Assembly: GCA_964505005.1 (NCBI GenBank)
Contig: CAZDFQ010000002.1
Location: forward strand, 92,310 to 156,309
From: an uncultured Candidatus Saccharibacteria bacterium
GTDB taxonomy: Bacteria; Patescibacteriota; Minisyncoccia; UBA6257; 2-01-FULL-56-20
DNA length: 64,000 bases
Reading direction: 5' to 3'
The notes below the pieces were generated by a model, which was not told the origin of the DNA, made no database searches, and saw only the letters and a program-made list of their open reading frames with translations. The translations under genes were made by a program, and so were the position numbers. Below, one piece after another: positions 2,995 to 63,899 of this stretch (position 1 is the first letter of the stretch; the number at the start of each line of letters is the position of its first letter).

Positions 2995-3008
2995 GTTTAA
3001 TAGAGGCC

Positions 3009-3081: not shown

Positions 3082-3122
3082 CAATTTACAAAATAGGCTT
3101 TATTTGTTAATATCCCGCCGCA

Positions 3123-3498: not shown

Positions 3499-3574
3499 GG
3501 GGGCATAGTTTCAATCGGCAAAATATTTCTCTCCAAAAGAAAAGTTCCAGGTTCGAGCCCTGGTGCCCCCGCCA
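3499..3574 (+). tRNA. tRNA-Trp (anticodon CCA), with encoded 3' CCA
   Basis: Acceptor gggggca/tgccccc, anticodon stem tttct/agaaa with loop ctccaaa, T-arm ccagg-ttcgagc-cctgg, then gcca. rpmG followed by tRNA-Trp is a conserved gene order. Confidence 0.6.
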
Positions 3575-15768: not shown

Positions 15769-15856
15769 GCGCAGGTGGCAGAGCGGTCAATTGCACTTGA
15801 CTGTAAATCAAGCGCCCTTTCGGGCTACGGGGGTTCGAATCCCTCCCTGCGCACCA
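15769..15856 (+). tRNA. tRNA-Tyr (anticodon GTA), long variable arm, encoded CCA
   Basis: Acceptor gcgcagg/cctgcgc, anticodon stem cttga/tcaag with loop ctgtaaa, long variable arm cgccctttcgggctac, T-arm ggggg-ttcgaat-ccctc. Confidence 0.7.
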
Positions 15857-19701: not shown

Positions 19702-19932
19702 GAGATGTGAACGTTGCTCATGTTTTCCCGCCAGCAGTTTGTCCGAAAATACGCTATCAATTTCCCCGGCGAGGAATTTGCGTTCGCTTCCCGCCCGCCT
19801 GAGTTGCTCTCCCTGCCCGCCCCGCGTTGCGGAGCAAGGCAGGCGGGAGGCAAGTCGGGCGCGGTCGGCCCGCGCGAGGGTTTTCTTAACAAGCCGTTGG
19901 CGACCGAGATAAAATCTATTAGGACTTCAAAA

Positions 19933-21648
19933 ATGAAGAGATTTCTCAAGGCTTTCATTCTGATTGTCTTAATCGCTGGCGCGGGCTGGGCTTATTATTA
20001 CTTTTTTATCAGAGTGCCCCGGCCGAATGTCGGTTTGGAATTTTCCAAACCAAGCCAAGTGCTGGTCGGTCAACCGTTCACCATCGGCGTTTCTTTTTCC
20101 AATTATTCCGACCAGATTCTCAAAAACGCCAGATTGTCGGTTATTCTGCCGGACGGTATTTCTTTTTTGAACGGCACGGCCGGCCAGCGGATTATGGAGC
20201 AGGCCATCGGCGACATCGGGCCGGGCAGCATTAATCAGCAGAGCTTTAACTTAATCGTTTTGAGCGGCAGTCAGACCCTTAAACATCTTGACGCCAAACT
20301 CAGCTACGAAACTGCCGGTTCCTCAGCCGAATTCGAAAGCCAGAGCGGCCTTGACATTCCGGTGGGTCAGTCGGCAATAACGCTCAGCTTCGACATTCCC
20401 CAAAATGTGTTTAGCGGCGCGGATTTCGACCTGACAGTCCGTTACGAAAATAATTCATCCCAGGATTTTAAGAACCTTCGTTTGCGGCTCGATTATCCGC
20501 CTCTTTTCAAATTCAAGAAAGCCGCTCCCGAGGTTTCAACCGCCAATAATCAATGGGATTTTGGAGGTGTTCCTGGGGGAGCGAGCAGCAGCGTCACCAT
20601 CAGCGGCAGCTTAACCGGCCCTGAAGGTTCCTATTACAATTTTCGCGGCATCGTAACCGCTGATTTTTTGGGGCAAAGCTATACGATTTCCGAACAAACC
20701 GCCAATATCTCTCTCTCGGCTTCACCGCTGTCAATAACACCCTCGGTCAATAATTCTTCTGATTATATTTCTCGTTTTGCCGATGATTTGAACTACAAAT
20801 TGCGCTACAGAAACAATTCCAACGCTGTTTTTGAAAATGTCACCATTAAAGCCACTCTTAGCGGAGAACTTTTCGATTTTTCGACGCTCAGGACCAATGG
20901 TTCGTTCGATCCAGCAACAAAAACTCTTACCTGGTTTACGGCTAACACGCCAGCGCTCGCGGCTCTACTGCCCGGCCAGGAAGGCGACGTAACTTTTGAA
21001 ATAAAGCTGAAAAATAATTTCCCCCTTCGGCGGTTGAGCGACAAAAATTATGTTCTGAAACTTCATAATGAGATTAATTCACCAACCGTCCCCCAAGGTA
21101 CGAAAGCCCAACAGACCATCTCCATTGCCGATTTGGAGACAAAAGTGGCTGGTCAACTGGGGCTGAATGCCAAAGCTTTTTGGCGCGACGCTTCTTCGGG
21201 CATTTTGAACAAAGGCCCTTATCCGCCGGTGGTTAATCAGCCGACCCAATACACGATTCACTGGCAGGTCGCCAATTACGCAACCGATGTCAGCGGCGCC
21301 GAGGTGAGCGCTTATCTTCAGTCCGGCAGCCGCTGGACCGGAGTGGTGAAATCGAACACTGACAGCCAGCCGACCTACAACCCTTCCAGCGGCAAGGTCA
21401 TCTGGAACATCGGGAACATTATGGCCACCAAGGGCGTTATCAATGCGCCCCTGGAAGCGATTTTCCAGATTGAATTGACGCCGGCGGCCAATCAAATCAA
21501 TCAGCTGATTACTTTTTTGGGCGAGACGGCGATTCAAGCCCAGGACACTTTTACCGGTTTGACTCTGAACGTTTCGACGCCGGCATTGACTACGGCTCTG
21601 CCTGATGATACAACGATTACCACGCAGAACCGGGGAGTAAAGCAGTAA
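19933..21648 (+). CDS. Large N-terminally anchored surface protein with repeated beta-sandwich-like segments (571 aa)
   Basis: The true start is probably MKRFLKAFILIVLIAGAGWAYYYFF (a TM anchor). The upstream part of the track ORF 19714-19932 overlaps a repeat element. Ser/Thr/Asn-rich extracellular body with recurring SGS/SxS motifs. Confidence 0.5.
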   Translation: MKRFLKAFILIVLIAGAGWAYYYFFIRVPRPNVGLEFSKPSQVLVGQPFTIGVSFSNYSDQILKNARLSVILPDGISFLNGTAGQRIMEQAIGDIGPGSINQQSFNLIVLSGSQTLKHLDAKLSYETAGSSAEFESQSGLDIPVGQSAITLSFDIPQNVFSGADFDLTVRYENNSSQDFKNLRLRLDYPPLFKFKKAAPEVSTANNQWDFGGVPGGASSSVTISGSLTGPEGSYYNFRGIVTADFLGQSYTISEQTANISLSASPLSITPSVNNSSDYISRFADDLNYKLRYRNNSNAVFENVTIKATLSGELFDFSTLRTNGSFDPATKTLTWFTANTPALAALLPGQEGDVTFEIKLKNNFPLRRLSDKNYVLKLHNEINSPTVPQGTKAQQTISIADLETKVAGQLGLNAKAFWRDASSGILNKGPYPPVVNQPTQYTIHWQVANYATDVSGAEVSAYLQSGSRWTGVVKSNTDSQPTYNPSSGKVIWNIGNIMATKGVINAPLEAIFQIELTPAANQINQLITFLGETAIQAQDTFTGLTLNVSTPALTTALPDDTTITTQNRGVKQ

Positions 21649-32608: not shown

Positions 32609-34321
32609 ATGCGCCTCCCCGTACCTATCCCCCAGCTTAAAGACAAATTGCTTCAGGAGAATCTTATTTCTCCAGAACGTTTCGACGCCCTGCTCGCCGA
32701 AGTTGAAAGGAAGAAAGAAAACATTCTCGATGTTTTGGTTTCAGAAAACATCGTTGAAAGAAATTACATAAATGAATTCGTCGCTTCCGCGCTGGGAGTT
32801 GAGCTGGCTAATTTGTCAGCAAAAAAAATTGATGAAAATGTCGTCAAGCTGTTGCCCGAAGACCTGGCCCGGCAACGCCGCGTTATTTTATTCGGCAAAG
32901 AGCCGGATGGCGCGCTTGAGGTGGCGATGGCTGAGCCGAGCGACCTTGAAACCATTGAATTTTTGGAAGAACGCCTGAAAGCAAAAGTTAAACCGTATTT
33001 AGCAACCCCAGAAGATTTAAACCGCAGCTTTTCGATTTACGGCTTGGAATTAACTCAAAATTTCAAAAAAATTATTGAAGAGAATATCCAGGAATCGCTC
33101 CGCAGCCGCACTAAGACCATTGAAGAAGCGGCGGCCCAGTTGCCGATTGTTGCTATCGTTGACAATCTTTTATCTTACGCTACTTCCTTGCGCGCTTCTG
33201 ACATTCATCTGGAAATTTTGGAAGAAGATACGCTCGTCAGATACCGCATTGATGGCATCCTTTATGAGATTTTAAGAATTCCCAAAGAAGTTCATCCGGC
33301 TTTGGTAGCGCGGATTAAAATTTTAAGCGGTCTTAAAATCGACGAACATTATAAACCTCAGGACGGTCGATTCCGTCACAGTGTTGCTAATCAGGTTGTC
33401 GATGTCCGGGTCTCGGTGATGCCGACTTTTTACGGCGAGAAAATAGAGATGCGGCTGCTGGAATCAACCGAGAGACCTTTGTCGCTTGAAGAATTGGGGA
33501 TGCTTGAGGAAGTTGAAAAAATTGTTTCGGAAAATTTGAAAAAGGCCTATGGGATGATTTTAGTTTGCGGGCCGACCGGTTCCGGAAAGACAACGACTCT
33601 TTACGCTATGATGAATATTTTGAATAAACCGACGGTGAACATCGTGACCATCGAAGACCCGATTGAGTACAACATCCGCTATGTCAATCAGACGCAGATT
33701 AATCCGGCGGCCGGCATTACTTTTGCTTCGGGGTTGCGCTCTATTTTACGACAAGACCCCAATATAATTATGGTCGGTGAAGTCAGGGACAGCGAGACGG
33801 CCGGCATAGCGGTGCAGTCGGCACTGACCGGGCACCTGATTCTTTCTTCGCTCCATACTAATGACGCGCCAACGGCCGTACCTCGGCTTTTTGACTTGGA
33901 GGTGCCGCCGTTTTTGGTGGCGGCCACTCTTAACTTAGTGGTGGCTCAGCGTTTGGTCAGAAAAATCTGCACTCAATGCATTTACTCATACAAGATAACG
34001 CCGGCCATCAAAGAGTCAGTCGAAGAACAGCTTGGAGTTTTAGGCATAAAAGGCGGAGAAACCATCCCCACCATTCTTTTTAAAGGTAAAGGATGTCCGG
34101 CTTGCAATTTTGCCGGCTATCGGGGCCGACTCGGCATCTTCGAAATTTTAGAGATTAATGAATCAATCAAAAAAACGATAATTGACCCGCGCTTTAGCTT
34201 AGAAACCGTCCGCCAGGCCGTCAGAGAAAACAGCTTCAAAACGATGTTCGAAGACGGTTTATTGAAGGTTCAACTGGGATTGACTACAATTGAAGAAGTA
34301 CTGAGAGTGATAAGAGAATAA
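32609..34321 (+). CDS. pilB: Type IV pilus assembly ATPase PilB (GspE family)
   Basis: N-terminal T2SSE_N domain. LVCGPTGSGKTTTLYAMM Walker A; Asp/His boxes; C-terminal tetracysteine CPACNFAGYRGRLG. Confidence 0.9.
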   Translation: MRLPVPIPQLKDKLLQENLISPERFDALLAEVERKKENILDVLVSENIVERNYINEFVASALGVELANLSAKKIDENVVKLLPEDLARQRRVILFGKEPDGALEVAMAEPSDLETIEFLEERLKAKVKPYLATPEDLNRSFSIYGLELTQNFKKIIEENIQESLRSRTKTIEEAAAQLPIVAIVDNLLSYATSLRASDIHLEILEEDTLVRYRIDGILYEILRIPKEVHPALVARIKILSGLKIDEHYKPQDGRFRHSVANQVVDVRVSVMPTFYGEKIEMRLLESTERPLSLEELGMLEEVEKIVSENLKKAYGMILVCGPTGSGKTTTLYAMMNILNKPTVNIVTIEDPIEYNIRYVNQTQINPAAGITFASGLRSILRQDPNIIMVGEVRDSETAGIAVQSALTGHLILSSLHTNDAPTAVPRLFDLEVPPFLVAATLNLVVAQRLVRKICTQCIYSYKITPAIKESVEEQLGVLGIKGGETIPTILFKGKGCPACNFAGYRGRLGIFEILEINESIKKTIIDPRFSLETVRQAVRENSFKTMFEDGLLKVQLGLTTIEEVLRVIRE

Positions 34322-51186: not shown

Positions 51187-51786
51187 ATGGAATCGTTCAT
51201 CTCTCATTATCTTCTGGCTTGGCAGCCGCTCGGCTATCTGCTCGCTTTTTTGGGAATGATTTTGGAAGGCGAAGTTCTCCTGATACTGGCCGGTTTTTTG
51301 ACCAGCCAGGGTTATTTTAATTTTTTTTATATGTTTGCCGCTCTTTTACTGGGAGCGCTGTTTGGCGATTTTTTCTGGTATCGGTTCGGCCACTATCTTT
51401 TCAACACCTCCGGCCTGAAATTTCCAGAATGGCTTCACCGGCTGTCCCATCCTCTGGACATTCATTTGCGGGACCGGCCGAGAAAAACAATTTTCATTTC
51501 CAAATTCGTTTATGGCGCAAACCGCGCGACCTTGATGCGGGCCGGCGCCTCGGGTGTCAGCTTAAAAGATTTTTTTGAAAGCAATGTCTATGCCAATATC
51601 GTCTGGATTATCGTGATCGGCGGCCTGGGCTATTTATTCGGTGCTTCCTTAGCGCTCCTTAAAAAATACATCCGCTTAGCCGAGCTGGTGATTTTGATAA
51701 GCGTAATTATATTTTTGTTCGCCAGCCATTTCCTTGTCCTCAGATACAAGGATAAGCACGAAGAAGATGAATTAGAAAATGGTTAA
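51187..51786 (+). CDS. DedA-family (SNARE-associated/TVP38) membrane protein
   Basis: ISKFVYGANRATLMRAGASGVSLKDFF core motif; 4-5 TM. Confidence 0.75.
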   Translation: MESFISHYLLAWQPLGYLLAFLGMILEGEVLLILAGFLTSQGYFNFFYMFAALLLGALFGDFFWYRFGHYLFNTSGLKFPEWLHRLSHPLDIHLRDRPRKTIFISKFVYGANRATLMRAGASGVSLKDFFESNVYANIVWIIVIGGLGYLFGASLALLKKYIRLAELVILISVIIFLFASHFLVLRYKDKHEEDELENG

Positions 51787-53050
51787 AACGAAGCATCCTG
51801 GGAACTTTTGGCGAGCACTCGGCCCGGGCCTGATTACCGGCGCTTCGGATGACGACCCCTCGGGGATTCTGACCTATCTTCAGGGAGGCGCGGTGCTCGG
51901 CTTCGGCGCGCTCTGGACCGCTTTGGTTACTTTGCCGATGATGTACGCGGTTCAGGAAATGGCTGGCCGCATCGGTTTGGTGACTCAAAAAGGCCTGCTC
52001 AGAATCATTAAAGAAAATTATTCGAGAAAAATTCTTTTCCTCATCGCTTTTATTTCGATTGTTGTCATCACCATCAACATCGGCGCGGACCTCTTGGCTA
52101 TCGGCGTGGCGGTCCAGGGGCTGGCGCCGGTCAGCAATTTAATCCTTTTGCCGCTGGCCGCTACCATCATTCTTCTCGCGGTGATATTTTTTTCCTATCA
52201 GCGTTTTGCCGGCATTCTCAAATGGCTGACTTTAACTCTTTTTTTCTATGTTTTAGCAGTTATTTACTTGAAAATCGATTGGTCGGTGGCTCTTAAAGCC
52301 ACGCTTATTCCGAGAGTGTCGTTTTCTTTGGAGAATGCTTTTCTGCTCGCGGCGATTTTCGGCACCACTGTTTCCCCCTATCTTTTTTTCTGGCAGGCCA
52401 ACGAGGAGATAGAAGAGAAAGAGGAAAAAAGGCGCGACAAGCCAATTCGCCGGCTGCTCATCACCAAGAATGAACTTAAAAATTTAAAGGAAGACACTTT
52501 TATCGGCATGCTTTTTTCCAATGTTGTTACCTGGTTTATCTTTGCCGGCGCGACCAAGCTTTTTCAAACAACTAACTCAACTGCCGGCCTGGCGACTTTC
52601 CAACAGGCCTCGCTGGTTTTGAAACCGCTTCTCGGCGATTTCGCCTATCTGGCTTTTACTTTGGGAATAATCGGCACTGGATTTCTCGCGATTCCGGTGT
52701 TAGCCGGCAATATCGGCTATATGTTCGCCGAAATTTTCGATTGGCCCGAGGGCATAAATAAAAAATTCCACGAAGCCAGAGGATTTTACATCGCCATCGT
52801 CTCAGCCACGATTTTGGGAATGTTCATTAACTTCTTCCGCTTTGACCCGATAACCCTTCTCATTTACACCGCGGTCCTTTATACTTTCATAACTCCGCCG
52901 ATAATTTACATAATTCTTAAAATTTCCAATAACAACGAACTTATGAGGGGCCGCATCAATTCGGCCGCTTCCAACATTTTGGGAGCGATAACCCTGGCGA
53001 TTTCTTTATTGCTGGCCGTATTTTATCTGATACTCGCTTTTCGGAAGTAA
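51779..53050 (+). CDS. NRAMP-family divalent metal (Mn2+/Fe2+) transporter
   Basis: ALGPGLITGASDDDPSGILTYLQGGAVLGFGALWTALVTLPMMYAVQEMAGRIGLVTQKGL matches the Nramp consensus (GPG...DPGN...Q.GA..GY.LLW...MxxxxQxxxxRLG.VTG). Confidence 0.8.
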   Translation: MVKTKHPGNFWRALGPGLITGASDDDPSGILTYLQGGAVLGFGALWTALVTLPMMYAVQEMAGRIGLVTQKGLLRIIKENYSRKILFLIAFISIVVITINIGADLLAIGVAVQGLAPVSNLILLPLAATIILLAVIFFSYQRFAGILKWLTLTLFFYVLAVIYLKIDWSVALKATLIPRVSFSLENAFLLAAIFGTTVSPYLFFWQANEEIEEKEEKRRDKPIRRLLITKNELKNLKEDTFIGMLFSNVVTWFIFAGATKLFQTTNSTAGLATFQQASLVLKPLLGDFAYLAFTLGIIGTGFLAIPVLAGNIGYMFAEIFDWPEGINKKFHEARGFYIAIVSATILGMFINFFRFDPITLLIYTAVLYTFITPPIIYIILKISNNNELMRGRINSAASNILGAITLAISLLLAVFYLILAFRK

Positions 53051-54376: not shown

Positions 54377-54778
54377 ATGGTTAAATCCTGGACATCAATC
54401 ATTTTATTTATAAGTTTTGCGGGAATCGCGGTACTTGGCGCTCTGGCTATGAATCATGTGGGGAATGCCTATCATGGCTGCCTGGCGGCCACGGCTGGCG
54501 TGACCTCCTGCGCCAATGAAAACAATCCCTTCGCCTCCGCTATTTTTCACCTCGATGTCTTTAAAAGTTTTTCCACGGCAGCCGTTGTCAGTTCAATTAC
54601 GCTTCTTCTGGCAGCCGCTCTTCTGTTTGCTTTCTGGTTGATTTTTGACGTAAATCTTCCGGTGGCCGCCGGACAATCTTTTTCGCTGCTCCTAAAACCC
54701 GAGCCGGACAATCCTCCTTTCAAGAAACATTTCATCCAGTGGCTGGCTTTCCACGAGAACAGTCCGACGACTAAATAG
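54377..54778 (+). CDS. Hypothetical membrane protein (2 TM, Cys/His-containing loop)
   Basis: SIILFISFAGIAVLGALAMNHVGNAYHGCLAATAGVTSC... Confidence 0.35.
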   Translation: MVKSWTSIILFISFAGIAVLGALAMNHVGNAYHGCLAATAGVTSCANENNPFASAIFHLDVFKSFSTAAVVSSITLLLAAALLFAFWLIFDVNLPVAAGQSFSLLLKPEPDNPPFKKHFIQWLAFHENSPTTK

Positions 54779-54936
54779 GGGCGCCTTACTTCAGAGCGAC
54801 ATTCGTCGAGTTCTCTCTTGGAGGCGCCTTTCCATCCCCATTGAAAGGGGATTTTTGTTGTTTCAAATCAAGTCAACTTAAAATAATTAATTCGGATGGG
54901 CGTATCCGTAGCGCGCTATTCGAATGCCAATCAATC

Positions 54937-55440
54937 ATGAAAAACAATATAATTATACTTATACTTGTCATCACGGCAGCCGTTGTCGGATTCATTCTCT
55001 GGAATGGAAAGTCGTCTAGACCGGCAGAAACCGTCAACCTTATAACCGGCCTTACTTCGGCTAATTTAAACGAAGCGATTCCGGTTTATGATTTCGGTTC
55101 GGTGTCAATGTTCAAAGGCAATGTCGAACACGACTTCGCCGTCAAAAACACGACCGACAGCGAGCTTCTCGTAACCGGCGCGGAAACATCCTGCATGTGC
55201 ACGCGGGCGGTCTTGAAACTGCCGGACGGTCGGGAGATGGGCCCCTTCGGGATGCCGGGCCACGGCTTCAATCCCTCGCTCAATGTTAACATCAAGCCAG
55301 GAGAGTCATTAGTAGTCAGAGCTATTTTCGACCCGGCGGCTCACGGCCCGGCCGGCGTCGGCTTAGTGGAACGGCAGATTCTTCTTTCGACTAACAAAGG
55401 TCAGCTCATGATGCAATTCCGCGCCCAAGTAACACCATGA
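54937..55440 (+). CDS. DUF1573 domain protein (membrane-anchored beta-sandwich with SCxCT motif)
   Basis: YDFGSVSMFKGNVEHDFAVKNTTDSELLVTGAETSCMCTRAVLKLPDG...IKPGESLVVRAIFD matches DUF1573 (FDFG...SCGCT...PGE). Start at the ATG 54937. Confidence 0.6.
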   Translation: MKNNIIILILVITAAVVGFILWNGKSSRPAETVNLITGLTSANLNEAIPVYDFGSVSMFKGNVEHDFAVKNTTDSELLVTGAETSCMCTRAVLKLPDGREMGPFGMPGHGFNPSLNVNIKPGESLVVRAIFDPAAHGPAGVGLVERQILLSTNKGQLMMQFRAQVTP

Positions 55441-56231
55441 CGAACAATCTATTTCGAAGCAAGCTTTTTTGGCTTGGCTTGGCAGTAGTCCTTTTAATCG
55501 GCGCCGGCTTGTTTTTGGGCTCAATGGCCAGCGCGCCGCTCCTCTATAAATTCTCCAATTCCGGTACCTGGTTTATACCGCTTTTAGTGGCCGCGGCGGT
55601 TACTGACAGCATTAACATCTGCGCTTTCTCGGTCTTGCTGCTGACCGTGGCTTTCCTCATCAGTCTCGGCCGAGTCCGGACCAGCATTATGAAAATCGGC
55701 TTCAGCTACATCGCCGGCATCTTCATTGTCTATCTGCTTATCGGCTTAGGCATTCTCCAGGCGCTTCACCTCTTCAACACCCCGCACTTTATGGCTAAAG
55801 TCGGCGCGACGCTTCTTATCGTTCTGGGAGCCATTAACATCATCAATGAATTTTTCCCGGCCTTTCCTCTAAAATTGCGCCTTCCCCAGGCGGCCCACGG
55901 CAAAATGGCCGAGCTCATGGAAAAAGGGTCAATGCCAACGGCCTTTCTTTTGGGAGGTCTGGTCGGTCTTTGCGAGTTTCCTTGCACCGGCGGTCCTTAT
56001 CTGATGGTCTTAGGGCTTCTTCACGATAAAGCCACCTACTTCAAGGGAGTTGCTTATCTCTTCCTTTATAATCTCATCTTCATTCTGCCGTTAGTGGCCA
56101 TCCTGATTCTGGCGAGCAACAAGGATTTGCTCGGCAAGGTGCAGGAATGGAGAAAGGTCGAAGCCAAAAATATGCGGTTCTGGATAGGCATCGCAATGAT
56201 TGTCTTGGGCCTGCTTATTTTTGCGCTGTGA
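55437..56231 (+). CDS. ccdA: Cytochrome c biogenesis protein CcdA-like (DsbD-family transmembrane thiol-disulfide transporter)
   Basis: DSINICAFSVLL and GLCEFPCTGGPYL (the two conserved Cys in TM segments); 6+ TM. Confidence 0.75.
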   Translation: MTNNLFRSKLFWLGLAVVLLIGAGLFLGSMASAPLLYKFSNSGTWFIPLLVAAAVTDSINICAFSVLLLTVAFLISLGRVRTSIMKIGFSYIAGIFIVYLLIGLGILQALHLFNTPHFMAKVGATLLIVLGAINIINEFFPAFPLKLRLPQAAHGKMAELMEKGSMPTAFLLGGLVGLCEFPCTGGPYLMVLGLLHDKATYFKGVAYLFLYNLIFILPLVAILILASNKDLLGKVQEWRKVEAKNMRFWIGIAMIVLGLLIFAL

Positions 56232-56423
56232 TATGAAGCTTCGCTTCATCATTTGGTTCACCCGGCAATCACAAGAATCTTTTTGTTCTTGAGTTGCCTC
56301 GTTGCCAAATGTAGAATTAAATATAATGCGAATGGCGCGAATTCTTATGCGAATGTTGCGAATATTTTAATAAACCCCTCTGCGGTTATTCGTATCATTC
56401 GCACACATTCGTAAATTGGCATT

Positions 56424-56945
56424 ATGTTAATTATGGACGCCAATTCACAAAAATACCAAGAGCTGATTAAAAAAATCGAGGCGCTTAAAAAATCGGACAA
56501 GGTCGATTTGTCCACGGACGAGGACTTGAGCTTGGCGGTGATGAACCTGATTAGCCTGGAAGAACATTTTTTCTTCACCGCCGAAAAGACCGGTAAAGGA
56601 GAGTATCTTGATTTGCTCAATGAGGTACGGGCGCTGCGGAAATCATTGCTGGCTCGTTTGATTGACAAGCACGAAGGCGAAACCTGGTGCGCGAGCAAAC
56701 ATTTGCTGGCCGCGACCATGCGGTTGCTCGAAGTCGGCACCAAACTGCATTCGGACAATAAAAAGAAAGAAGCTAAAGAAATATTCGATTATGCCCATCG
56801 TTTGTATTCCATTTTCTGGGGGTTGCGCTTGAAACTTCTTGATACCAAAGGATTAAGAGAAGCAGCTGCCGAATCGGCGAAGGCGGACAAACCCTGGACT
56901 CTCGAAGATATCGTCAATAAACTGGTTGACTGTTGCGATGAGTGA
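56424..56945 (+). CDS. Hypothetical cytoplasmic helical protein
   Basis: No motif recognised. Confidence 0.35.
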   Translation: MLIMDANSQKYQELIKKIEALKKSDKVDLSTDEDLSLAVMNLISLEEHFFFTAEKTGKGEYLDLLNEVRALRKSLLARLIDKHEGETWCASKHLLAATMRLLEVGTKLHSDNKKKEAKEIFDYAHRLYSIFWGLRLKLLDTKGLREAAAESAKADKPWTLEDIVNKLVDCCDE

Positions 56946-57034
56946 TAAAAAATCAAAAATCCCCGCCTGCGCCGACCCGCACTTCGCCGTTGACTTCAGC
57001 AGGGAGAGGGCTTCGGCGGGCAGGAAAAATCAAA

Positions 57035-57412
57035 ATGCAAAATTACAATTCAAAATTTAAAATTTTAATATTTTTAATTGTCATTTTAATCTTTGCATTT
57101 TTATTTTTGATTTGGCAGCGAGGTAGCGGCACGGCACCGCAGAATTTACTCGACTCTCTTGCTAAATGTCTGGCCTCGAAGGGTATAACAATGTACGGCG
57201 CCTATTGGTGCCCGCATTGCCAGAACGAGAAAGCAGCTTTCGGCAGTTCGTTCAGATATATTCCCTATGTGGAGTGCGCGGAAAATCCGCAAAAATGTCT
57301 GGAGGTCGGCATCAAGGGTTATCCAACCTGGATTTTCTCGGATGGCCGGCGCTTTGAAGGCGAGCAAGGGCTTCAGCGGCTGGCGCAGGAAAGCGGCTGC
57401 CCATTGCCGTAA
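57035..57412 (+). CDS. Membrane-anchored thioredoxin-fold protein (WCPHC active site)
   Basis: TM ILIFLIVILIFAFLFLIW, then MYGAYWCPHCQNEKAAFG (CxxC). Confidence 0.7.
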   Translation: MQNYNSKFKILIFLIVILIFAFLFLIWQRGSGTAPQNLLDSLAKCLASKGITMYGAYWCPHCQNEKAAFGSSFRYIPYVECAENPQKCLEVGIKGYPTWIFSDGRRFEGEQGLQRLAQESGCPLP

Positions 57413-57442
57413 AATCACGAATCACAAATCATAAATCACGAA

Positions 57443-58447
57443 TTGAGAATTATGGAAAACGATATTCAAAAACCTGAAGAAAAGAGAAAAAATGGCTTCT
57501 TGCTGCCGCTAAGCATTCTGCTTTCAACGTTTATCCTTGCCGGTGCCTGGATTTACACGACTGGTTTGAAAACAGCCAAAGTCGGGCAGCGGCCTTTGGC
57601 GGCGGCCAATGTCCAGCAATCTCTGCTGGAAGGGAAATTATTGCCTTCTCAAGGAATTGTTCTACCGGTTCGCTGGGGCGATTCGGGTGCGAAGCTCGTA
57701 AAAGCCGGCGTAATTGATGGTGGGAAATTCGAATCGCTCTACAATCGGCAGGGAGAAGAAAGCAAACGAAGTTTGTTTTCGGCGAGCGAACCGATTGATG
57801 AAGCGGAAGCTTCATACGCGAATCGTTCGGTTTCTCTCAATGAGCTCAGGCGATTGCTCTACGGAGAGGATAATGGCAATTTAAAAATTACCCGGGAAAA
57901 TTCCGGAATCATCGTCAATCTTCTGTGGGCTTTAGGTCTGGGTAACAAAAACGCGATTTTGGAGAGGGGGCCGATGGCTGACCCGCGTTATATTACTGCT
58001 AATTTCGCTTCCACCGGCGGCTGGACAATTGCCAAAGGCAGCGCGATGGAACATTACAGCAAACATGAGTTTGTTACTTTAACGCCAGAACAGCAGGCAT
58101 TGGTAGAAAGAGTCAGTCAAAATATCTATCGGCCGTGTTGCGACAATGCCACTTATTTTCCGGACTGCAACCACGGGATGGCCATGCTCGGCCTGCTCGA
58201 GCTGATGGCTTCGCAAGGCGTTTCCGAGGAGGAAATGTACCGGGCAGCGCTTAAAGTAAATTCGTTTTGGTTTCCGGATGTTTACCTGACGATTGCCAAA
58301 TATTTTGAGTCAAAGGGGATTGATTGGAGCCAGACGGATTCCAAAGAGGTCTTGAGCTATAATTTTTCGAGTGCCAGCGGCTACCAGCGGATTTTGAGCC
58401 AGGTCGCGCCGCCGGAAATCAATTCTAGCAGCGGTTGCGGCGTCTAA
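57443..58447 (+). CDS. Membrane-anchored Cys-rich extracytoplasmic protein of unknown family, paralog A (YRPCCDN...DCNHG...C-terminal GCGV)
   Basis: TM LLPLSILLSTFILAGAWIY. Homologous over about 250 aa to the C-terminal half of 60946-62436. Confidence 0.5.
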   Translation: MRIMENDIQKPEEKRKNGFLLPLSILLSTFILAGAWIYTTGLKTAKVGQRPLAAANVQQSLLEGKLLPSQGIVLPVRWGDSGAKLVKAGVIDGGKFESLYNRQGEESKRSLFSASEPIDEAEASYANRSVSLNELRRLLYGEDNGNLKITRENSGIIVNLLWALGLGNKNAILERGPMADPRYITANFASTGGWTIAKGSAMEHYSKHEFVTLTPEQQALVERVSQNIYRPCCDNATYFPDCNHGMAMLGLLELMASQGVSEEEMYRAALKVNSFWFPDVYLTIAKYFESKGIDWSQTDSKEVLSYNFSSASGYQRILSQVAPPEINSSSGCGV

Positions 58448-58528
58448 GCGGTTTCTAAATTATCCCCACCTCTCTTGCATAAATACCCCGTAGGGGTATA
58501 ATTAGAATTATAGGCGAGCGATAATAAA

Positions 58529-58912
58529 ATGGATTTCGATTATACAGTTAAAACTTCAAAAGCTTTTGATTCAGTCGTGAAAGCGGTGGAAGAAGAAACC
58601 GCCAAAGCCGGCTTCCGGGTTTTGTATATCCACGATGTCCAGAATGCTTTGGCGGAAAAGGGTTTTGAAATCGAGCCGTTCAAAATCATCGAAATCTGCA
58701 ACGCCAAATCCGCTTATGCCGTTTTGAAAGCCGATATTAAAATCGGGCTCTGCCTGCCCTGCAAAATCAATGTCTATGTCAAAAACGGCGAAACTTACAT
58801 TTCCGGAATGCGGCCGCTTGTCCTCAAGCAGTTTTTCCCGGCTGCCGATTTGGGTGACCTGCCGGAAGAAGTGGACCGCCTTATCAGGTCAATAGTAGAT
58901 AATTCAAAATAA
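58529..58912 (+). CDS. DUF302 domain protein
   Basis: FDSVVKAVEEETAKAGFRVLYIHDVQNALAEKGFEIEPFKIIEICN matches DUF302. Confidence 0.7.
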   Translation: MDFDYTVKTSKAFDSVVKAVEEETAKAGFRVLYIHDVQNALAEKGFEIEPFKIIEICNAKSAYAVLKADIKIGLCLPCKINVYVKNGETYISGMRPLVLKQFFPAADLGDLPEEVDRLIRSIVDNSK

Positions 58913-58975
58913 TATATACTATGAAAAATACCTGCGGCATTTTTAAAGGTCGAATCAAAAACATTCGATTGTCTT

Positions 58976-59251
58976 ATGGAGCTTGACAAGAATAAATTCG
59001 CCTTGGCAGCCAGCGCAGCGCTGGGAATAGTCTATGTCGTCTGCGCCGTGTTCGTGACGCTCTGGCCGGATTTTTCTTTGAAGCTTTTCGGCTGGCTGGT
59101 TCATCTGGTCAATGTCGACAAGTTCGCCGGTGGCGTGGCGGTAACCGCTTCCGGATTGATTATCGGCTTGGTTCAGGTGTTGGTTTACTCCTATATTATC
59201 GGTTATCTTTTCGCCTGGCTGCATAACCGGTTTCTGAAACCGCGCCCCTAA
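58976..59251 (+). CDS. Small 2-TM membrane protein (hypothetical)
   Basis: LAASAALGIVYVVCAVFVTLW and ASGLIIGLVQVLVYSYIIGYLF. Confidence 0.4.
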   Translation: MELDKNKFALAASAALGIVYVVCAVFVTLWPDFSLKLFGWLVHLVNVDKFAGGVAVTASGLIIGLVQVLVYSYIIGYLFAWLHNRFLKPRP

Positions 59252-59267
59252 GCAGAAAACAACTTAG

Positions 59268-60131
59268 ATGGAACTACTTTTAAGCGCATCGCTCGTGGCG
59301 GCTTTCGTGGCGGGGGTGGCGGCTCTTTTCGCGCCCTGCTGCATCACGGTTCTTCTGCCAGCTTATCTCGCTTCCATTTTCCGGGAACGGTACAAAGTGT
59401 TTTTGATGACCTTTATATTTTCTCTCGGGATACTGGCGGTGTTCCTGCCGATCGGCCTGGGAGCAGCGGCGCTGGGACAATTCTTCAGTCAATATCACAA
59501 CGTCATTTTCGGTGCTGGCGCGGTTTTCCTGATTTTGCTGGGGTTTATTCTCCTAACCGGCAGTCACTTTTCACTGCCGTTCCGGGCCAACCCCTCTCTT
59601 AAAAAGCACAATGCCCTTTCTGTTTTTGTTCTGGGCGCCTTTTCCGGAGTGGCGACCGCTTGTTGCGCTCCGGTTTTGGCAGGGGTGTTGGCTCTGGCGG
59701 TTTTGCCCGGCTCTATATTGTGGGGCGGGCTTTACACTTTGAGTTATGTTTTCGGTCTGGTCGCGCCCCTCTTCTTCCTGTCTCTTGTTCTGGATAAGAC
59801 AAATTTTACCCAGAAGTTCAGCAGCGTCTTCCGGAAGCCGCTGGAATATTCGGTTGGTGGAAGGAAGTTCAGTATCGCAGTTTCCGAAGCAATCTCTGGT
59901 ATCACTTTTTTGGGAATGGGGACATTGATTCTTTATCTGGCCTTGACAAACAAACTTTTCGTTCATTCTGAATATCAGGTAAGCATCAATATATTTCTTA
60001 CAAAAATTTTGAATTCGGTGAATGGTTTTATAAAGGTCGTACCCGAATTTGTTTGGGCGGTTCTCTTGGTCGCAGCAATCGCCCTCCTCATCAGCCGCGT
60101 CAGGTCCCTGCTTCGGAAGGAAAAACTTTAA
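59268..60131 (+). CDS. DsbD_2/CcdA-like transmembrane protein with paired Cys motifs (second paralog in the island)
   Basis: LFAPCCITVLLPAYL and GVATACCAPVLAGVLALA. Confidence 0.6.
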   Translation: MELLLSASLVAAFVAGVAALFAPCCITVLLPAYLASIFRERYKVFLMTFIFSLGILAVFLPIGLGAAALGQFFSQYHNVIFGAGAVFLILLGFILLTGSHFSLPFRANPSLKKHNALSVFVLGAFSGVATACCAPVLAGVLALAVLPGSILWGGLYTLSYVFGLVAPLFFLSLVLDKTNFTQKFSSVFRKPLEYSVGGRKFSIAVSEAISGITFLGMGTLILYLALTNKLFVHSEYQVSINIFLTKILNSVNGFIKVVPEFVWAVLLVAAIALLISRVRSLLRKEKL

Positions 60132-60266
60132 TTTAATCTCAATGACTTCTGCTCTTTATTCCTGCGCCTTTAAATTGTTGATATTGCCGATCTGATGTGG
60201 TAAAATTAATCATAAATCAATTAAAATCCTCCTCAACCCAAGAGTTTCGGGGGATAAAGAACAATT

Positions 60267-60893
60267 ATGAAAAAGAACGCAACAACAATAGCCTCCGTCA
60301 TAGTAGTCATTCTGGTTGCGGGAGCGTTGCTTTATATTGGTGGCGGAAATAAATCATCCACCACTGCCCAGCCCTCCGCCCTCGACTCCAGGTATAGCGG
60401 AACAGCGAATGTTCCCTACGCGTCATTGAATAACCTCGTTGGGAAACCGGTGCCGGCCTTCTCGCTGGCGGACGGCAGCGGTAAGATTTACTTGTCAGAC
60501 AGCTTGCGCGGTAAGAAGACCGTTCTTTTTTTCACGGAAGGGCTGATGTGTTACCCGGCCTGCTGGAATCAGATTGTCGCCTTTACCAAGGACGTGCGCT
60601 TCAGGGATAGCAACACCCTGGTGCTTTCAGTGGTCGTTGAGTCAAAAGAAGATTGGCAGAAAGCAATCAACCAGATGCCGGAGCTGGCTCAGGCGGCGGT
60701 ACTCTTTGATAGCGACTCGACCGTATCAAAGCAGTTAGGTATGCTCACGGCGCCCTCTTCAATGCACCCGGGATCGCTGCCGGGCCACACCTATCTGCTC
60801 GTGGATAAAAACGGAATCATCAGATACGTCTTGGACGATCCAACGATGAGTATCCGCAATGATCAGCTGATATCAGAGATAGCGAAATTATAG
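60267..60893 (+). CDS. SCO1/SenC-like copper chaperone (thioredoxin fold, CxxxC + His)
   Basis: TM anchor, then KTVLFFTEGLMCYPACWNQ (CxxxC as in Sco CPDVCP) and ...GHTYLLVDKNGIIRYV (the conserved His / LxDxxG block). Confidence 0.55.
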   Translation: MKKNATTIASVIVVILVAGALLYIGGGNKSSTTAQPSALDSRYSGTANVPYASLNNLVGKPVPAFSLADGSGKIYLSDSLRGKKTVLFFTEGLMCYPACWNQIVAFTKDVRFRDSNTLVLSVVVESKEDWQKAINQMPELAQAAVLFDSDSTVSKQLGMLTAPSSMHPGSLPGHTYLLVDKNGIIRYVLDDPTMSIRNDQLISEIAKL

Positions 60894-60945
60894 AGATGAT
60901 AAAAGTAAAAGCTGGACGCTCTCTTTAATTGGACGCCGGTCAAGC

Positions 60946-62436
60946 CTATACTCCGCAGCCGGCGCCGCCCTGCTTTTGCGGCAAAAGACCGGGGTTTTTG
61001 GCAATAATCTCTTGAAACGGCTGGCCGATATTTTTTGCCCAGCCGGGGCCACTCGAATAGTTAAAGCCCATAATTTCTTTGGAATTGATATCTTCCCAGG
61101 CGGTGTTTTTGGCGAGTTTGTAGTAAAGCGCGGTCTCAAGGTAGATTTGCGGAAACCAGAAGGAATTGAACCGCAATGCGACTCGGTAGAGTTCTTCTTT
61201 GGAAAGCCCTTGCGAGGCGCCGAGTTCGATTAAACCTAAAAGAGCTGAGCCGTGGTTGCAGTCTTGAAAGAAAGTTGAGTTGCCGCAGCAGGGTCGGTAA
61301 GTGTTTTGCGCGACCTCTAAGGCAAGCGCTTCCTCGCTCGGCGTGAGCTTTACGATATTGAATTTGTTGAAATATTTGCCGCCGTTGTCTTCTTTGCCGA
61401 GCGTCCAGCCGCCGGTGGAGGCGAAATTGAAAAGGGAGTCGCCGTTGACCGGACTTTTTTCGTTAAATTGGGTTTTATTGGCAAGCCCCATGGGCCAGAG
61501 GAGGTTGACCAAAAGGCCGGCATTGGCGGCATCTATTTTTAGCGGTTCGCCTGAGGGTTGGCTGAGAATCAGAAGTTCCTTTTCGTTTATACCGCGGCCG
61601 GCGTAAATCTTCCGGAATTTTTCAGGGTCAATGACGCCGTTTTCTACCAGTTTGACGATGGCGTCGCCGAAAACAATTCTCGTCTGAAATCCAGCCGGCG
61701 GCAGCACCTTGGCGACGACTTCGTCGTAGAGAGTGCTGCCGGTTTTGGCGTTTTGAGTATTCTGGATTCGGTTCATAAGAAGCGTGCCGTTTTTTGCCGC
61801 TGCGCTGGCTGCAACCTGTTCTTGATTCCAAAGCGGCATTGCCAAAAAAAGAATCAAAAATAGAACCGCCAGAAGCGTCGGATAAGATAACAATGAGTCG
61901 GCTTTCGCGGGAGCAGTCGCTGCCGCCTCAGGTTTTACTTCGCAGGTTTCGCAATTTGCCGCGCCAGACAATTTTTTTGCGGATAGTGCCAGTGCGACTC
62001 CGAAAAATGCCGCGCTCAAAAATTTCAGCTCCAGTCCTTTGAGAGGCAGAATGGCAACGCCGCCGGCAATACCGATTACCGAAAAAAGAAACGAACCGCA
62101 AATAGGGCAAGCCGCGGCAAAGGCTCCGAAGGTAGCGCCAAAGACATTGCCTCCCTGGGCTTTAATGCTCTTAAGTTTGGAATGTTGCCACGAATACACC
62201 GCGATCGCCAGGCTCATTCCGAAGAGCGCCACACTCAAAAGCGTTAAGATAACATACGGCCAGAAGTAGAGCGGAACGCCTCTATACATTGAATAGAAAT
62301 TCACCCAGGTGGTGGTTTTGGAGAGCAGCCACCAGTAAAGAAGGCCGAGACCAAACGCTCCGTCAATCGCAACCAGTAGATAGAGCGGCTTCCGGAAGAT
62401 GATTTTTACAACTGACGAAAATGTTTCATGCGCCAT
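60946..62436 (-). CDS. Polytopic membrane domain (CPICG motif) fused to a Cys-rich extracytoplasmic domain, paralog B of 57443
   Basis: N-terminal ~200 aa with multiple TM segments and CPICGSF. The C-terminal half carries YRPCCGNSTFFQDCNHGSALLGLIELGASQG...GCGV, aligning with paralog A. Confidence 0.5.
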   Translation of the reverse strand: MAHETFSSVVKIIFRKPLYLLVAIDGAFGLGLLYWWLLSKTTTWVNFYSMYRGVPLYFWPYVILTLLSVALFGMSLAIAVYSWQHSKLKSIKAQGGNVFGATFGAFAAACPICGSFLFSVIGIAGGVAILPLKGLELKFLSAAFFGVALALSAKKLSGAANCETCEVKPEAAATAPAKADSLLSYPTLLAVLFLILFLAMPLWNQEQVAASAAAKNGTLLMNRIQNTQNAKTGSTLYDEVVAKVLPPAGFQTRIVFGDAIVKLVENGVIDPEKFRKIYAGRGINEKELLILSQPSGEPLKIDAANAGLLVNLLWPMGLANKTQFNEKSPVNGDSLFNFASTGGWTLGKEDNGGKYFNKFNIVKLTPSEEALALEVAQNTYRPCCGNSTFFQDCNHGSALLGLIELGASQGLSKEELYRVALRFNSFWFPQIYLETALYYKLAKNTAWEDINSKEIMGFNYSSGPGWAKNIGQPFQEIIAKNPGLLPQKQGGAGCGV

Positions 62437-62577
62437 TTGTTTCTATTATATTATAGCAAGAAAAAGCTTTCCATCAACCCCCAGTCAGTTTGATGGTCTG
62501 TTGGTTTTTGAAATCAGGGAAACTTATCCACAGCAGGAATAATTGACAAGTAGGAGGTAGGGGTATAAGGTATAAAT

Positions 62578-62850
62578 ATGCTGGACAAGAAATTGAAGAA
62601 AAGGTCTATTCACCGCGCGAAAATCATTCGTGGCCAGGTGGACGGCCTCATTAAGGCCGTCGAAAAAGAAGTGTACTGCCCCGAGCTTTTGGCCCAGTCG
62701 CTGGCCATTCAAAGGTCGCTCAAAAGTCTTGACGCCTTTCTTCTGGAGAATCATCTCCGAACCCATGTGAAGCGCCAATTGGGCCGCCGCGGCGGAGAAG
62801 AAAAGGCCGTCAGAGAATTAATCAGGATTTATACGTTGTCAAACAAATAA
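62578..62850 (+). CDS. csoR: CsoR/RcnR/FrmR-family metal-sensing transcriptional repressor
   Basis: RAKIIRGQVDGLIKAVEKEVYCPELLAQSLAIQRSLKSLDAFLLENHLRTHV: the conserved Cys in the alpha2 helix and His in the alpha3 helix, typical of CsoR. Confidence 0.7.
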   Translation: MLDKKLKKRSIHRAKIIRGQVDGLIKAVEKEVYCPELLAQSLAIQRSLKSLDAFLLENHLRTHVKRQLGRRGGEEKAVRELIRIYTLSNK

Positions 62851-63008
62851 TCAAAATCAAGATGTTAAATTTCAACTTACTGGCCGAATTATAATCTCAT
62901 TGGATTCCCCAAAGAATACGGCGATGCTTATAAAATCTGGCGCCTGGAAAAGGTAGAAATAACCAAGGCCCAAACAAAAGAAACTACTATCAGCTTAGTT
63001 CAAAGCCA

Positions 63009-63899
63009 GTGAAAAAAATTATTGTAGTCATTTTGGCCATCGGCGTTTTAATCGCAGGTTTTTTGTTTGTTAAAAATGTATTTTTCAATCACCCCTATTA
63101 TAAAGTTGATTTTTCAAAACAATATCTCGCGGCTGCATCGGACGTTCCCGGTTTTGAGATTAAAAAAAGCAGTTCGGTTTTTATCGCCTATTATCATCCG
63201 AGGAGCGAAACAAGAGCCAATAGCGCCTTAGCGACATTAGAACAGGCCGGCTTGCCTTTGTATAAAAAATATTTGGGGATTGTTCCAAAAGAAATTTCTA
63301 TTTATTTAGCGGATAAAGTTGATGAATATATTAGAATTTCCGACTTCCCGGGCGGTAAAGAAGGCGTTAAAGTTGGCGACGGCTCATCGCCTAACGGCCG
63401 AATTTACTTGTACAAACCATTTGATTTTTTGACCTTAGCCCAGGAAGCGATGGTCATTCACGAAGGAACGCATGCGGTGATATATCAATTTTTAGGCAAT
63501 ATGCGCTACTTGCCGAGTTTTTTAAATGAGGGCTTGGCTCATTTTATTGAATACATTTTTAAATCCGGACCGGATTTTGAGCCTCTCCGCGAAATTAATC
63601 CGATTTTGATAAAAGCAGCAAAAACCGGTGGTCCCAAGATTCTGACTATTTCCGAGCTTGACCAAAAATGCGAGGGGTTTATCAGCGACGAAACTCAGAG
63701 CGGCCTCTGTCGCGCAGAAGGAACTTTTATTGTTTGGTATATCAACAAAAATTACGGCGACGGTGTTTGGGGGAAATTTTTAACCGAGCTCAAACAAACC
63801 CAAAATTGGCAGAAATCTTTGCGCGCTGTAACCGGTAGAACAACCGAAGAATTAGAACGGGAAGCCAGAGAGCAATTAAAATTAATGGCCAGCAAATGA
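63009..63899 (+). CDS. Membrane-anchored gluzincin-type zinc metallopeptidase-like protein (HExxH-x18-E)
   Basis: HEGTHAVIYQFLGNMRYLPSFLNEGLAHF: HExxH followed 18 residues later by the Glu of an LNEG block, as in M1-type gluzincins. N-terminal TM. Confidence 0.5.
   Translation: MKKIIVVILAIGVLIAGFLFVKNVFFNHPYYKVDFSKQYLAAASDVPGFEIKKSSSVFIAYYHPRSETRANSALATLEQAGLPLYKKYLGIVPKEISIYLADKVDEYIRISDFPGGKEGVKVGDGSSPNGRIYLYKPFDFLTLAQEAMVIHEGTHAVIYQFLGNMRYLPSFLNEGLAHFIEYIFKSGPDFEPLREINPILIKAAKTGGPKILTISELDQKCEGFISDETQSGLCRAEGTFIVWYINKNYGDGVWGKFLTELKQTQNWQKSLRAVTGRTTEELEREAREQLKLMASK

Follow-up and report, generated by a model that had tools for sequence, protein, structure and literature searches.

The 64,000-nucleotide stretch of DNA analyzed here (the window), from an uncultured Candidatus Saccharibacteria bacterium, contains a gene cluster that starts at position 54377, is conserved across the Patescibacteria, and links a putative copper-sensing repressor of the CsoR family with membrane transporters of thiol electrons and cysteine-rich (Cys-rich) envelope proteins. 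The cluster most likely serves at the cell surface in defense against copper rather than in the building of copper enzymes. More specifically, we read it, with a probability of roughly 0.55, as a copper-stress defense module, that is, a copper-induced system that reduces envelope thiols and handles Cu(I). Copper-exporting ATPases of the CopA/CopB type nearly always neighbor the cassette in related genomes, and these ATPases, together with a repressor that an excess of copper would release, make defense likelier than the maturation of copper proteins. No description of the cassette in Patescibacteria, or in the candidate phyla radiation (CPR), was found in the literature searched.

Gene content and conservation of the cassette

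An earlier note, made from the sequence alone, had described eleven consecutive genes at 54937 to 63899 as a copper and thiol-redox island under a CsoR-type repressor, and the listing of open reading frames (ORFs) together with profile searches recovered all eleven with the same coordinates. Read from 54377 on the + strand, the genes encode a 133-residue membrane protein (u133), a DUF1573 protein (g1), a CcdA-like membrane protein (CcdA1 or g2), a cytoplasmic protein (g3), a thioredoxin-like protein (g4), a Cys-rich protein (g5, paralogue A), a DUF302 protein (g6), a DUF5676 protein (g7), a second CcdA-type transporter (CcdA2 or g8) and a redoxin (g9). Downstream of g9 are the gene for a second Cys-rich protein on the − strand (g10, paralogue B), the CsoR-family gene (g11, 62578-62850) and a gene for a protein with an HExxH-x18-E motif (63009-63899). 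What had to be revised were the limits of the island and some of its labels. The genes are not consecutive, as the list had skipped the conserved g3 at 56424-56945, and the island starts at 54377, about 560 bp earlier than noted, because the 133-residue membrane protein at 54377-54778 is a member of the cassette. Neither the Sco label given to g9 nor the membership of the HExxH peptidase stood, as discussed below.

Every component of the cassette has conserved Cys or His residues in alignments of its homologues, and all of the extracytoplasmic partners combine an N-terminal membrane anchor with invariant Cys or His. The anchors put the DUF1573 protein, g4, g5 and g9, as well as a loop of u133, outside of the cell, and g3, the DUF302 protein and the CsoR-family protein are cytoplasmic. 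Terminator-like hairpins follow u133 (54834-54852) and CcdA1 (56233-56249), and promoter-like sites precede g3 and the redoxin gene g9 (60178-60206), which suggests that the island is transcribed as several units and not as one operon.

Conservation of the gene neighborhood was assessed in 89 related loci, the ORFs of which were labeled by iterative profile searches seeded with the window proteins and a neighboring ATPase; co-conservation was counted in loci around the Cys-rich gene from 80 species-representative genomes, using only loci with enough flanking sequence. Of 51 loci, 47 have a CcdA-type gene no more than 3 kb away from the Cys-rich gene; a DUF1573 or redoxin gene is near it in 44 of 48, a P-type ATPase is within 10 kb in 31 of 33, and a csoR gene is nearby in 20 of 33. 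The Cys-rich gene has a u133 homologue upstream of it in 52 of the 59 related loci with enough flank, and in 27 related loci g3 separates it from CcdA1. The thioredoxin gene is the least conserved member, being present within 2 kb upstream in 6 of 66 loci and in 13 of the 80 GTDB loci overall. The genes recur in the order u133, DUF1573, CcdA1, (g3), (thioredoxin), Cys-rich, (CsoR), (DUF5676) and P-type ATPase, the genes in parentheses being variably present, and in an alternative order the redoxin–CcdA2 pair replaces DUF1573–CcdA1. In most related loci the DUF1573 gene has a CcdA-type gene as its partner, and the redoxin gene forms a pair with CcdA2 in related loci. This clustering is far beyond chance. 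The comparison of neighborhoods that had been proposed as a check, with a failure of the genes to stay together in relatives as the refuting outcome, thus revealed strong co-conservation.

The cassette is also widespread. At 90% identity the homologues of paralogue A fall into more than 6,294 clusters, and at 50% identity they have 552 representatives; those that carry a name come without exception from Patescibacteria/Parcubacteria lineages, and no Pfam domain was recognized in any of them. The Cys-rich family is encoded in at least 591 species-representative genomes of GTDB, and the best 80 of these matches are all from CPR lineages, which points to a Parcubacteria-type genome as the origin of the window. 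With a Cys-rich relative in at least 591 Patescibacteria species genomes, the cassette is common and is no oddity of one small genome, contrary to the earlier description of it as unexpected in such a genome.

The ATPases near the cassette have either a CPC motif with YN, MxxSS and an N-terminal CxxC, or a CPH motif with MSxST and a His-rich N-terminus. We take the CPC signature to mark CopA-like and the CPH signature to mark CopB-like copper ATPases, following the established classification of P1B-ATPases. A gap of 4-11 nt separates the Cys-rich gene from the start of the ATPase gene in several loci, and this spacing suggests co-translation of partners. A third group of P1B-type ATPases has CPD in the metal-binding helix (L015, L023, L028, L038, L041, L047, L064, L066 and L085); these proteins have HMBD-like or His-rich N-termini, and a DUF5676 gene usually precedes them. 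We know of no description of CPD as a P1B-ATPase signature.

The repressor and its operator

The g11 gene (62578..62850, + strand) encodes a member of the CsoR/RcnR family (PF02583, 63.3 bits against a cut-off of 22.8, E 3e-17). Alignment with Bacillus subtilis CsoR and Escherichia coli RcnR revealed a single Cys in g11 and the ligand set x-C34-H59-H63 (C-H-H). Cu(I) sensors of the family have the ligand motif x-C-H-C or x-C-H-H. The latter defines the copper-sensor cluster of Thermus thermophilus (PMC8643695). RcnR, which senses Ni and Co, also has C-H-H but with an additional His3 that is absent from g11. Two classes of CsoR-family proteins occur in the relatives (L010-L089): those with C-H-C lie directly upstream of CPC (CopA-like) ATPases in 11 of 13 cases, and those with C-H-H, the type in the window (29 cases), are mostly embedded in the Cys-rich cassette.

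A search for a GC-rich palindrome, which the earlier note had proposed, returned a perfect hit that is unique in the window. The candidate CsoR operator at 58483..58499 is a perfect 17-bp palindrome, ATACCCCGTAGGGGTAT, of the TAC-N9-GTA form of type-2 G/C-tract pseudopalindromes, which occurs once in the 64-kb window and in 0 of 100 shuffles; no credible second operator was found in the window with up to 3 mismatches. The promoter of g6-g9 (58475..58502, + strand) comprises a −35 element TTGCAT (58475-58480), a 16-nt spacer and a −10 element TATAAT (58497-58502). The operator is positioned between the −35 element and the perfect −10 element, overlapping the spacer and the latter, and the start codon of DUF302 follows it at a distance of 26 nt. 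As only three of six positions in TTGCAT agree with the consensus, the promoter was missed by the automatic promoter scan. The CsoR box of Corynebacterium glutamicum, ATACCCCnnnGGGGTAT, is letter-for-letter the same as the operator in the window (PMC5057107), which also agrees with the consensus from streptomycetes, ATATACCCCTNAGGGGTATAT, and with the TAC-N9-GTA rule (PMC3902906). Of about 84 related loci, 29 have the same box, with a total of 35 sites; 29 of the sites are directly upstream of csoR, two upstream of DUF302 (L031 and L061), two upstream of u133 and one upstream of an ATPase gene. It is probable, from these sequence features, that g11 represses transcription through ATACCCCGTAGGGGTAT and leaves the DNA when cytoplasmic Cu(I) rises.

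The promoter of csoR itself has only the right half-site of the operator, GTAGGGGTATAA (62557..62568, + strand); the left arm is absent, and no full box was found there even with 3 mismatches. A half-site is insufficient for CsoR binding in Streptomyces lividans (PMC3902906). In the promoter region 62476-62568, a left-arm-like sequence with a C5 tract, ATCAACCCCCAG, lies about 70 bp upstream of the half-site, and it looks as if the operator of csoR has been split or has degraded. The csoR ATG follows a TATAAG by about 8 nt and the gene may therefore be leaderless, as also seems true in related loci, where the box-to-ATG distance is 9-13 nt. With the full operator on the DUF302–DUF5676–CcdA2–redoxin operon only, the statement that the island is under a CsoR-type repressor is valid for that part of it. 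The broader claim of a co-conserved extracytoplasmic system for copper and thiol redox with a CsoR-family repressor is supported by the operator and by the neighborhoods.

Cysteine-rich proteins and their probable redox partners

Paralogue A (g5, 57452..58447, + strand) consists of an N-terminal membrane anchor and a mostly helical extracytoplasmic domain of about 280 residues. The residues that are invariant in the Cys-rich domain are, in g5 numbering, R230, C232, C233, N235, D241, C242, N243, H244, G245 and C332, and thus include four Cys and one His. C332 belongs to a flexible C-G-[V/I/A] tail at the extreme C-terminus (C-G-V in g5), and 69 of the 70 proteins bearing such a tail among 6,391 ORFs of the related loci are members of the family. 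Paralogue B (g10, 60946..62436, − strand) likewise ends in CGV, and its Cys-rich domain (60946-61716) is fused to a membrane N-domain (residues 1 to about 240, 61717-62436) of about five helices with the invariant motifs PLYFWPY, SACPxCGS and PLxGLELK. The two proteins had been taken for paralogues and indeed are, with 40% identity over 284 residues (E 6e-66). The N-domain of g10 stands as a separate gene in L023, L031, L064 and L086; it has no Pfam match, also at E<=10, and its AlphaFold2 (AF2) model is of low confidence, with a predicted local distance difference test (pLDDT) of 65 and a predicted template modeling score (pTM) of 0.37.

The AF2 model of g5 (pLDDT 88, pTM 0.81) is mostly helical with a low-confidence tail. 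A Foldseek comparison of the Cys-rich model with the PDB gave no significant match, a Pfam search at E<=10 gave nothing credible, and a profile search of PDB sequences returned noise. CcmH is the sole structural match of the domain, and it is weak and local. In hhalign comparisons, RPCC of the Cys-rich domain aligned with RCPKC of CcmH, DCNHG with DSNS/A and ELMASQGxSxxE with ELMQEGKSxxE, at a probability of about 1% and an E of 0.056 for the family alignment; the expected register was obtained with both E. coli CcmH and the CcmH family alignment, and neither comparison was significant. Membership in the CcmH/CycL/NrfF family (PF03918) was therefore rejected, there being no Pfam match at E<=10 and no significant profile-profile similarity, and the domain is not filed under CcmH. 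We treat it as having a CcmH-like local helical module that carries RPCC…DCNHG. Together with u133, g3 and the membrane N-domain of g10, the Cys-rich domain is one of four families that have no database model.

The fusion partners of the Cys-rich domain vary, and include the single anchor, the membrane domain of about five helices with SACPxCGS, other Cys-bearing membrane modules and rhodanese. An extracytoplasmic N-terminal rhodanese (Pfam E 3.5e-13) replaces the membrane domain in P0146 and P0151, and such fusions hint at a possible link to sulfane-sulfur or sulfenic-acid chemistry. Alternative small membrane proteins adjoin the Cys-rich gene in some loci (L001, 7497-7979; L002, 8977-9402), with either a CPICAG helix and an NCC end or an SCCAHY motif, and P0126 and P0132 have modules of these CPICAG/SCCAHY types joined to their Cys-rich domain. 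In L003, a 60-residue anchored peptide (8938-9120) ends in GGGGCGI and mimics the C-terminal tail of the family. Several homologues of the g10 N-domain (P0276, P0278, P0283, P0284 and P0293) have a cytoplasmic Cys-rich extension at the N-terminus, YQCEECGF…KEWAEKCE.WCKEH.SCN, which resembles a zinc ribbon or metal-binding domain and has only sub-threshold Pfam matches (DUF7128 and DUF7479).

The genes upstream of g5 start with u133 (54377..54778, + strand), the first gene of the conserved cassette, which encodes a protein of 133 residues with two membrane helices. Its outside loop has C35-x9-C45 and H58, and its cytoplasmic tail has the conserved residues W..ENSP. It has no Pfam relative, also at E<=10, and no PDB relative, with a profile search of PDB sequences giving noise. 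The DUF1573 gene (g1, 54937..55440, + strand), recognized earlier by SCxCT, encodes a membrane-anchored extracytoplasmic Ig-like protein (PF07610, E 3e-11, 43.5 against 26.1 bits) with the conserved motifs TSCMCT, GPFGMPGHG and DPAAHGPAG. CcdA1 (g2, 55437..56231, + strand) is a DsbD/CcdA-like membrane protein of the LysE/DsbD superfamily. The CcdA identity proposed for it agrees with the positions of its Cys residues, although all of its profile matches (SfLAP, 9e-6; DsbD, 2e-6; also ArsG) are below the curated cut-offs. Its conserved residues are C62 in helix 1, C179-x3-C183 (FPCTGGPY), H111, H117 and H154.

The g3 protein (56424..56945, + strand), which was absent from the earlier note, is an all-helical cytoplasmic protein of 173 residues that ends in CCDE. 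H48, C89, H93 and the C-terminal pair CC170-171 (…VDCCDE) are invariant, and no relative was found in Pfam (also at E<=10), NCBIfam or the PDB, the profile search of PDB sequences again giving noise. The thioredoxin with WCPHC (g4, 57035..57412, + strand) was upheld as such: it is a membrane-anchored extracytoplasmic protein with six conserved Cys and corresponds, by homology, to the thioredoxin-like domain of the VKOR fusion protein of Synechococcus (3kp9/4nv2, E 3e-24), WCPHC being aligned to WCPHC. Its match to the Pfam Thioredoxin family is weak. Neither a VKOR membrane partner nor DsbB is visible within the island.

The operon behind the operator encodes four proteins, g6 to g9. The cytoplasmic DUF302 protein (g6, 58529..58912, + strand; PF03625, E 1e-16, 60.7 against 23 bits) has conserved C57 and C75-x2-C78. 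The small membrane protein (g7, 58976..59251, + strand) is a DUF5676 protein with two membrane helices (PF18926, E 6e-16, 59.5 against 27.6 bits) and conserved C23 and H43, and in relatives DUF5676 often directly precedes a copper ATPase. CcdA2 (g8, 59268..60131, + strand), expected to be a second DsbD-type transporter with CC pairs, scores above the cut-off for DsbD_TM (PF02683, E 8e-8, 32.3 against 27.1 bits) and has the pairs PCC and ACCAP (C24/C25 and C132/C133) in two canonical helices. Both g2 and g8 have one conserved Cys in each of two pseudo-symmetric helices, as is characteristic of CcdA/DsbD, and the helix Cys of these transporters (C62 and C179/C183 in g2; C24/C25 and C132/C133 in g8) are kept in 79-100% of homologues. 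The last gene of the operon, g9 (60267..60893, + strand), encodes a membrane-anchored extracytoplasmic protein of the AhpC/TSA-redoxin fold; AhpC-TSA is the best Pfam family (E 2e-16, 60.7 bits), followed by Redoxin (E 4e-12), and the best PDB matches are peroxiredoxins and DsbE/CcmG at about 1e-6. The Sco1/SenC-like features that had been ascribed to it are present, with C95-YPA-C99, H167 and H174 invariant in 16 homologues. Membership in that family was rejected after the profile test, with no match to SCO1-SenC (PF02630) at E<=10 and no Sco among the PDB matches, and CxxxC with a distal His is a resemblance only.

Several genes near the cassette are accidental neighbors. The HExxH protein (63009-63899) does have HEGTH-x18-E, and its match to Peptidase_MA_2 (PF13485) is below the cut-off (27.2 against 32.4). 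The peptidase and an Nramp-family metal transporter gene (E 5e-65) just upstream of the island are each part of the neighborhood in 0 of 79 related loci, and for this reason neither was retained as part of the system. A VTT/DedA-type membrane protein gene, which lies with the Nramp gene at 51187-53050, is also without co-conservation with the island (0 of 79 loci). An Rfam scan of the window found only four tRNAs, all outside of the island (2502-3571 and the 15769-15853 region), three of which are clustered at 2.5-3.6 kb. Farther away in the window, and likewise unrelated to the finding, are a 644-residue surface-type protein with DUF11 and transglutaminase-C Ig-like repeats (19714-21648) and a type II/IV secretion ATPase (32609-34321; T2SSE, E 1e-119) that fits a pilus system.

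Probable copper defense, rival explanations and known systems

From what the genes encode, from the operator and the co-conservation of the cassette, and from the copper type of the ATPases nearby, the topology signals and the invariant residues, we infer a mechanism, including its inducer, its direction of electron flow and a copper-binding role for the Cys-rich domain. Excess cytoplasmic Cu(I) would release CsoR from the operator that overlaps the −10 element of the g6-g9 operon. The two CcdA-type proteins would then carry reducing equivalents from cytoplasmic thiols to the anchored Cys proteins on the outer face, with CcdA1 supplying the DUF1573 protein (CxC) and the VKOR-type thioredoxin, and CcdA2 supplying the AhpC/TSA-fold protein with CxxxC and two His. 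These outer-face proteins would keep the four invariant Cys of the Cys-rich domain in paralogues A and B reduced, and the domain most likely binds Cu(I) expelled by the CopA/CopB-type ATPases or hands it on, re-reduces envelope thiols oxidized by copper, or does both.

Several observations weigh against copper defense as set out here. There is no copper ATPase (DKTGT) in the window and no ATPase in the 2.4 kb beyond its end, which makes this one of the few genomes where no pump adjoins the cassette. A full operator is present on one operon only, as the genes from u133 to paralogue A and the gene for paralogue B have no box and csoR has a half-site. CcdA1 scores below every curated cut-off and has extra conserved His, and it could carry metal instead of electrons. 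Finally, judging from its sequence, g4 resembles an oxidizing (DsbA-like) thioredoxin domain rather than a reducing one.

The last of these points leads to one rival explanation, quinone-independent oxidative folding, in which the VKOR-type thioredoxin and the Cys-rich and membrane CPxC modules would form disulfides in surface proteins, with the copper link secondary or with copper as the oxidant. The homology of g4 to the DsbA-like domain of VKOR fits such a pathway, as do the lack of a visible VKOR or DsbB in the island and the CPxC or CC motifs in membrane helices of the paralogue B N-domain and other fused modules; the C-terminal Cys tail of the Cys-rich proteins, which we take to resemble the shuttle cysteines of sulfhydryl oxidases, also counts in its favor. 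We nevertheless consider oxidative folding quite unlikely, since the thioredoxin gene is the least conserved of the cassette, CcdA-type proteins are to our knowledge reductive in all characterized cases, and the close linkage of the cassette with copper ATPases and CsoR would have no explanation. Maturation of a cuproprotein or cytochrome, as the earlier note had suggested, would have the CcdA, thioredoxin, Sco-like and CcmH-like proteins prepare Cys ligands and deliver copper or heme to an extracytoplasmic client. The wiring from CcdA to thioredoxin-like to CcmH-like protein copies the thio-reduction arm of cytochrome c maturation, CxxxC with a conserved His in g9 is a Sco-like feature, and the missing CsoR box on the u133 to paralogue A genes fits constitutive expression. 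However, no ORF in the window has CxxCH, no heme lyase, cupredoxin or oxidase subunit is among the ORF labels of about 89 neighborhoods, g9 fails the Sco family test, and the constant partners are exporters of copper and a repressor that copper excess would release. Maturation is therefore improbable and ranks below copper defense.

Another alternative is that the island moves Cu(I) by a Mer-like thiol relay, from the outer Cys-rich domain to Cys pairs in membrane helices (CC in the CcdA-like proteins, CPxCG) and on to cytoplasmic proteins with a CC tail such as g3. Conserved Cys or CC in the membrane helices of g2, g8, the g10 N-domain and the alternative modules would suit a relay of this kind, as would the extra conserved His and Met of CcdA1 and the CC end shared by g3 and the L001 module that replaces it. 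On the other hand, importing copper beside exporters has no obvious benefit, g8 is by score a normal DsbD_TM member, and no MerA-like reductase is present as a sink; we regard this relay as unlikely. The island might instead detoxify reactive sulfur (persulfides) under a CstR-like sensor of the CsoR family. DUF302 occurs with rhodaneses in sulfur modules regulated by CsoR-family proteins (PMC6305408), and some Cys-rich members are fused to rhodanese. Yet CstR needs two Cys (x-C-x-C) and g11 has a single Cys in a C-H-H set, for which it was rejected as a persulfide sensor of the CstR type; moreover, no persulfide dioxygenase, SQR or TauE is among the neighborhood labels, and the neighbors are copper ATPases. 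This makes persulfide detoxification very unlikely. Copper defense remains our preferred reading, and the original proposal of a copper and thiol-redox system was largely right once its emphasis is moved from maturation to defense, Sco and the peptidase are dropped, and u133 and g3 are added.

Parts of this arrangement have counterparts in known systems. The CsoR–CopA/CopZ regulons of B. subtilis, C. glutamicum and S. lividans share the PF02583 repressor and a promoter-overlapping ATACCCCnnnGGGGTAT / TAC-N9-GTA operator, the x-C-H-H CsoR cluster of T. thermophilus has the same ligand set as g11, and in relatives of the window the box is followed by csoR and then a CPC-type ATPase, as in CsoR–CopA regulons. 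In the window, by contrast, the box precedes DUF302–DUF5676–CcdA-like–redoxin and not an ATPase, no CopZ is seen, and csoR has a half-site only. The arm of cytochrome c maturation that runs from CcdA/DsbD through CcmG/ResA to CcmH similarly joins a CcdA-type transporter to membrane-anchored proteins of the thioredoxin fold, but the island is without heme lyase or cytochromes, and its Cys-rich domain has about 280 residues, four Cys, one His and a C-terminal tail. Like Sco1/SenC with TlpA, g9 has an extracytoplasmic thioredoxin fold, CxxxC and a conserved His, and it adjoins a CcdA-type gene; unlike Sco1/SenC, it has its His 68-75 residues after CxxxC, scores as AhpC/TSA and has no oxidase client.

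Precedents for copper-induced thiol reductases of the envelope are the Scs proteins, whose thioredoxin-fold partner ScsC also binds Cu(I) very tightly (PMC10907172; PMC8900818), and the dsbDEG operon of Pseudomonas aeruginosa (10.1101/2020.08.17.255257). ScsABCD and dsbDEG are alike to the island in logic only, copper stress inducing a DsbD-like membrane reductase with thioredoxin-fold envelope partners. ScsA, ScsC and ScsD are probably not related to DUF1573, the Cys-rich family, u133 or g3, and the island is membrane-anchored in monoderm style and probably under CsoR control, in place of the CueR or two-component control of those systems. CopL of Staphylococcus aureus (copBL/copXL) may be compared with the Cys-rich family in that it is surface-exposed, membrane-tethered, encoded beside a copper ATPase, under CsoR control and proposed to sequester copper extracellularly. 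CopL is a DUF1541 lipoprotein, however, with no relation in sequence or fold to the Cys-rich family, which probably depends on a reducing relay. By analogy with these systems, the island is best read as a new variant of the copper-linked envelope thiol-reductase logic (Scs-like, CcdA–CcmG–CcmH-like) that would be built from uncharacterized families.

It is possible, although we hold it only tentatively, that the cassette is instead an undescribed envelope machine specific to Patescibacteria, in which the Cys-rich domain, swappable Cys-bearing membrane modules (CPxCG, CC-H), u133, cytoplasmic proteins with a CC tail and CcdA-like proteins pass Cu(I) or electrons through cysteine pairs in a Mer-like manner and with a new fold class. 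If so, the machine would provide copper ATPases with the extracellular partner that is missing in organisms without periplasm, respiratory chain or quinones; Patescibacteria have neither respiratory chains nor quinones.

Much of the diversity of bacteria belongs to the Patescibacteria, and their extracellular handling of metals and control of thiol redox are almost undescribed. The cassette offers a clear functional context (copper), a defined regulator with its operator, and specific invariant residues. If the Cys-rich domain is the extracellular acceptor of copper exported by CopA/CopB, or a repair factor for it, the cassette would fill a gap in copper homeostasis of single-membrane cells, and for groundwater communities it would give copper stress a marker that can be tested.

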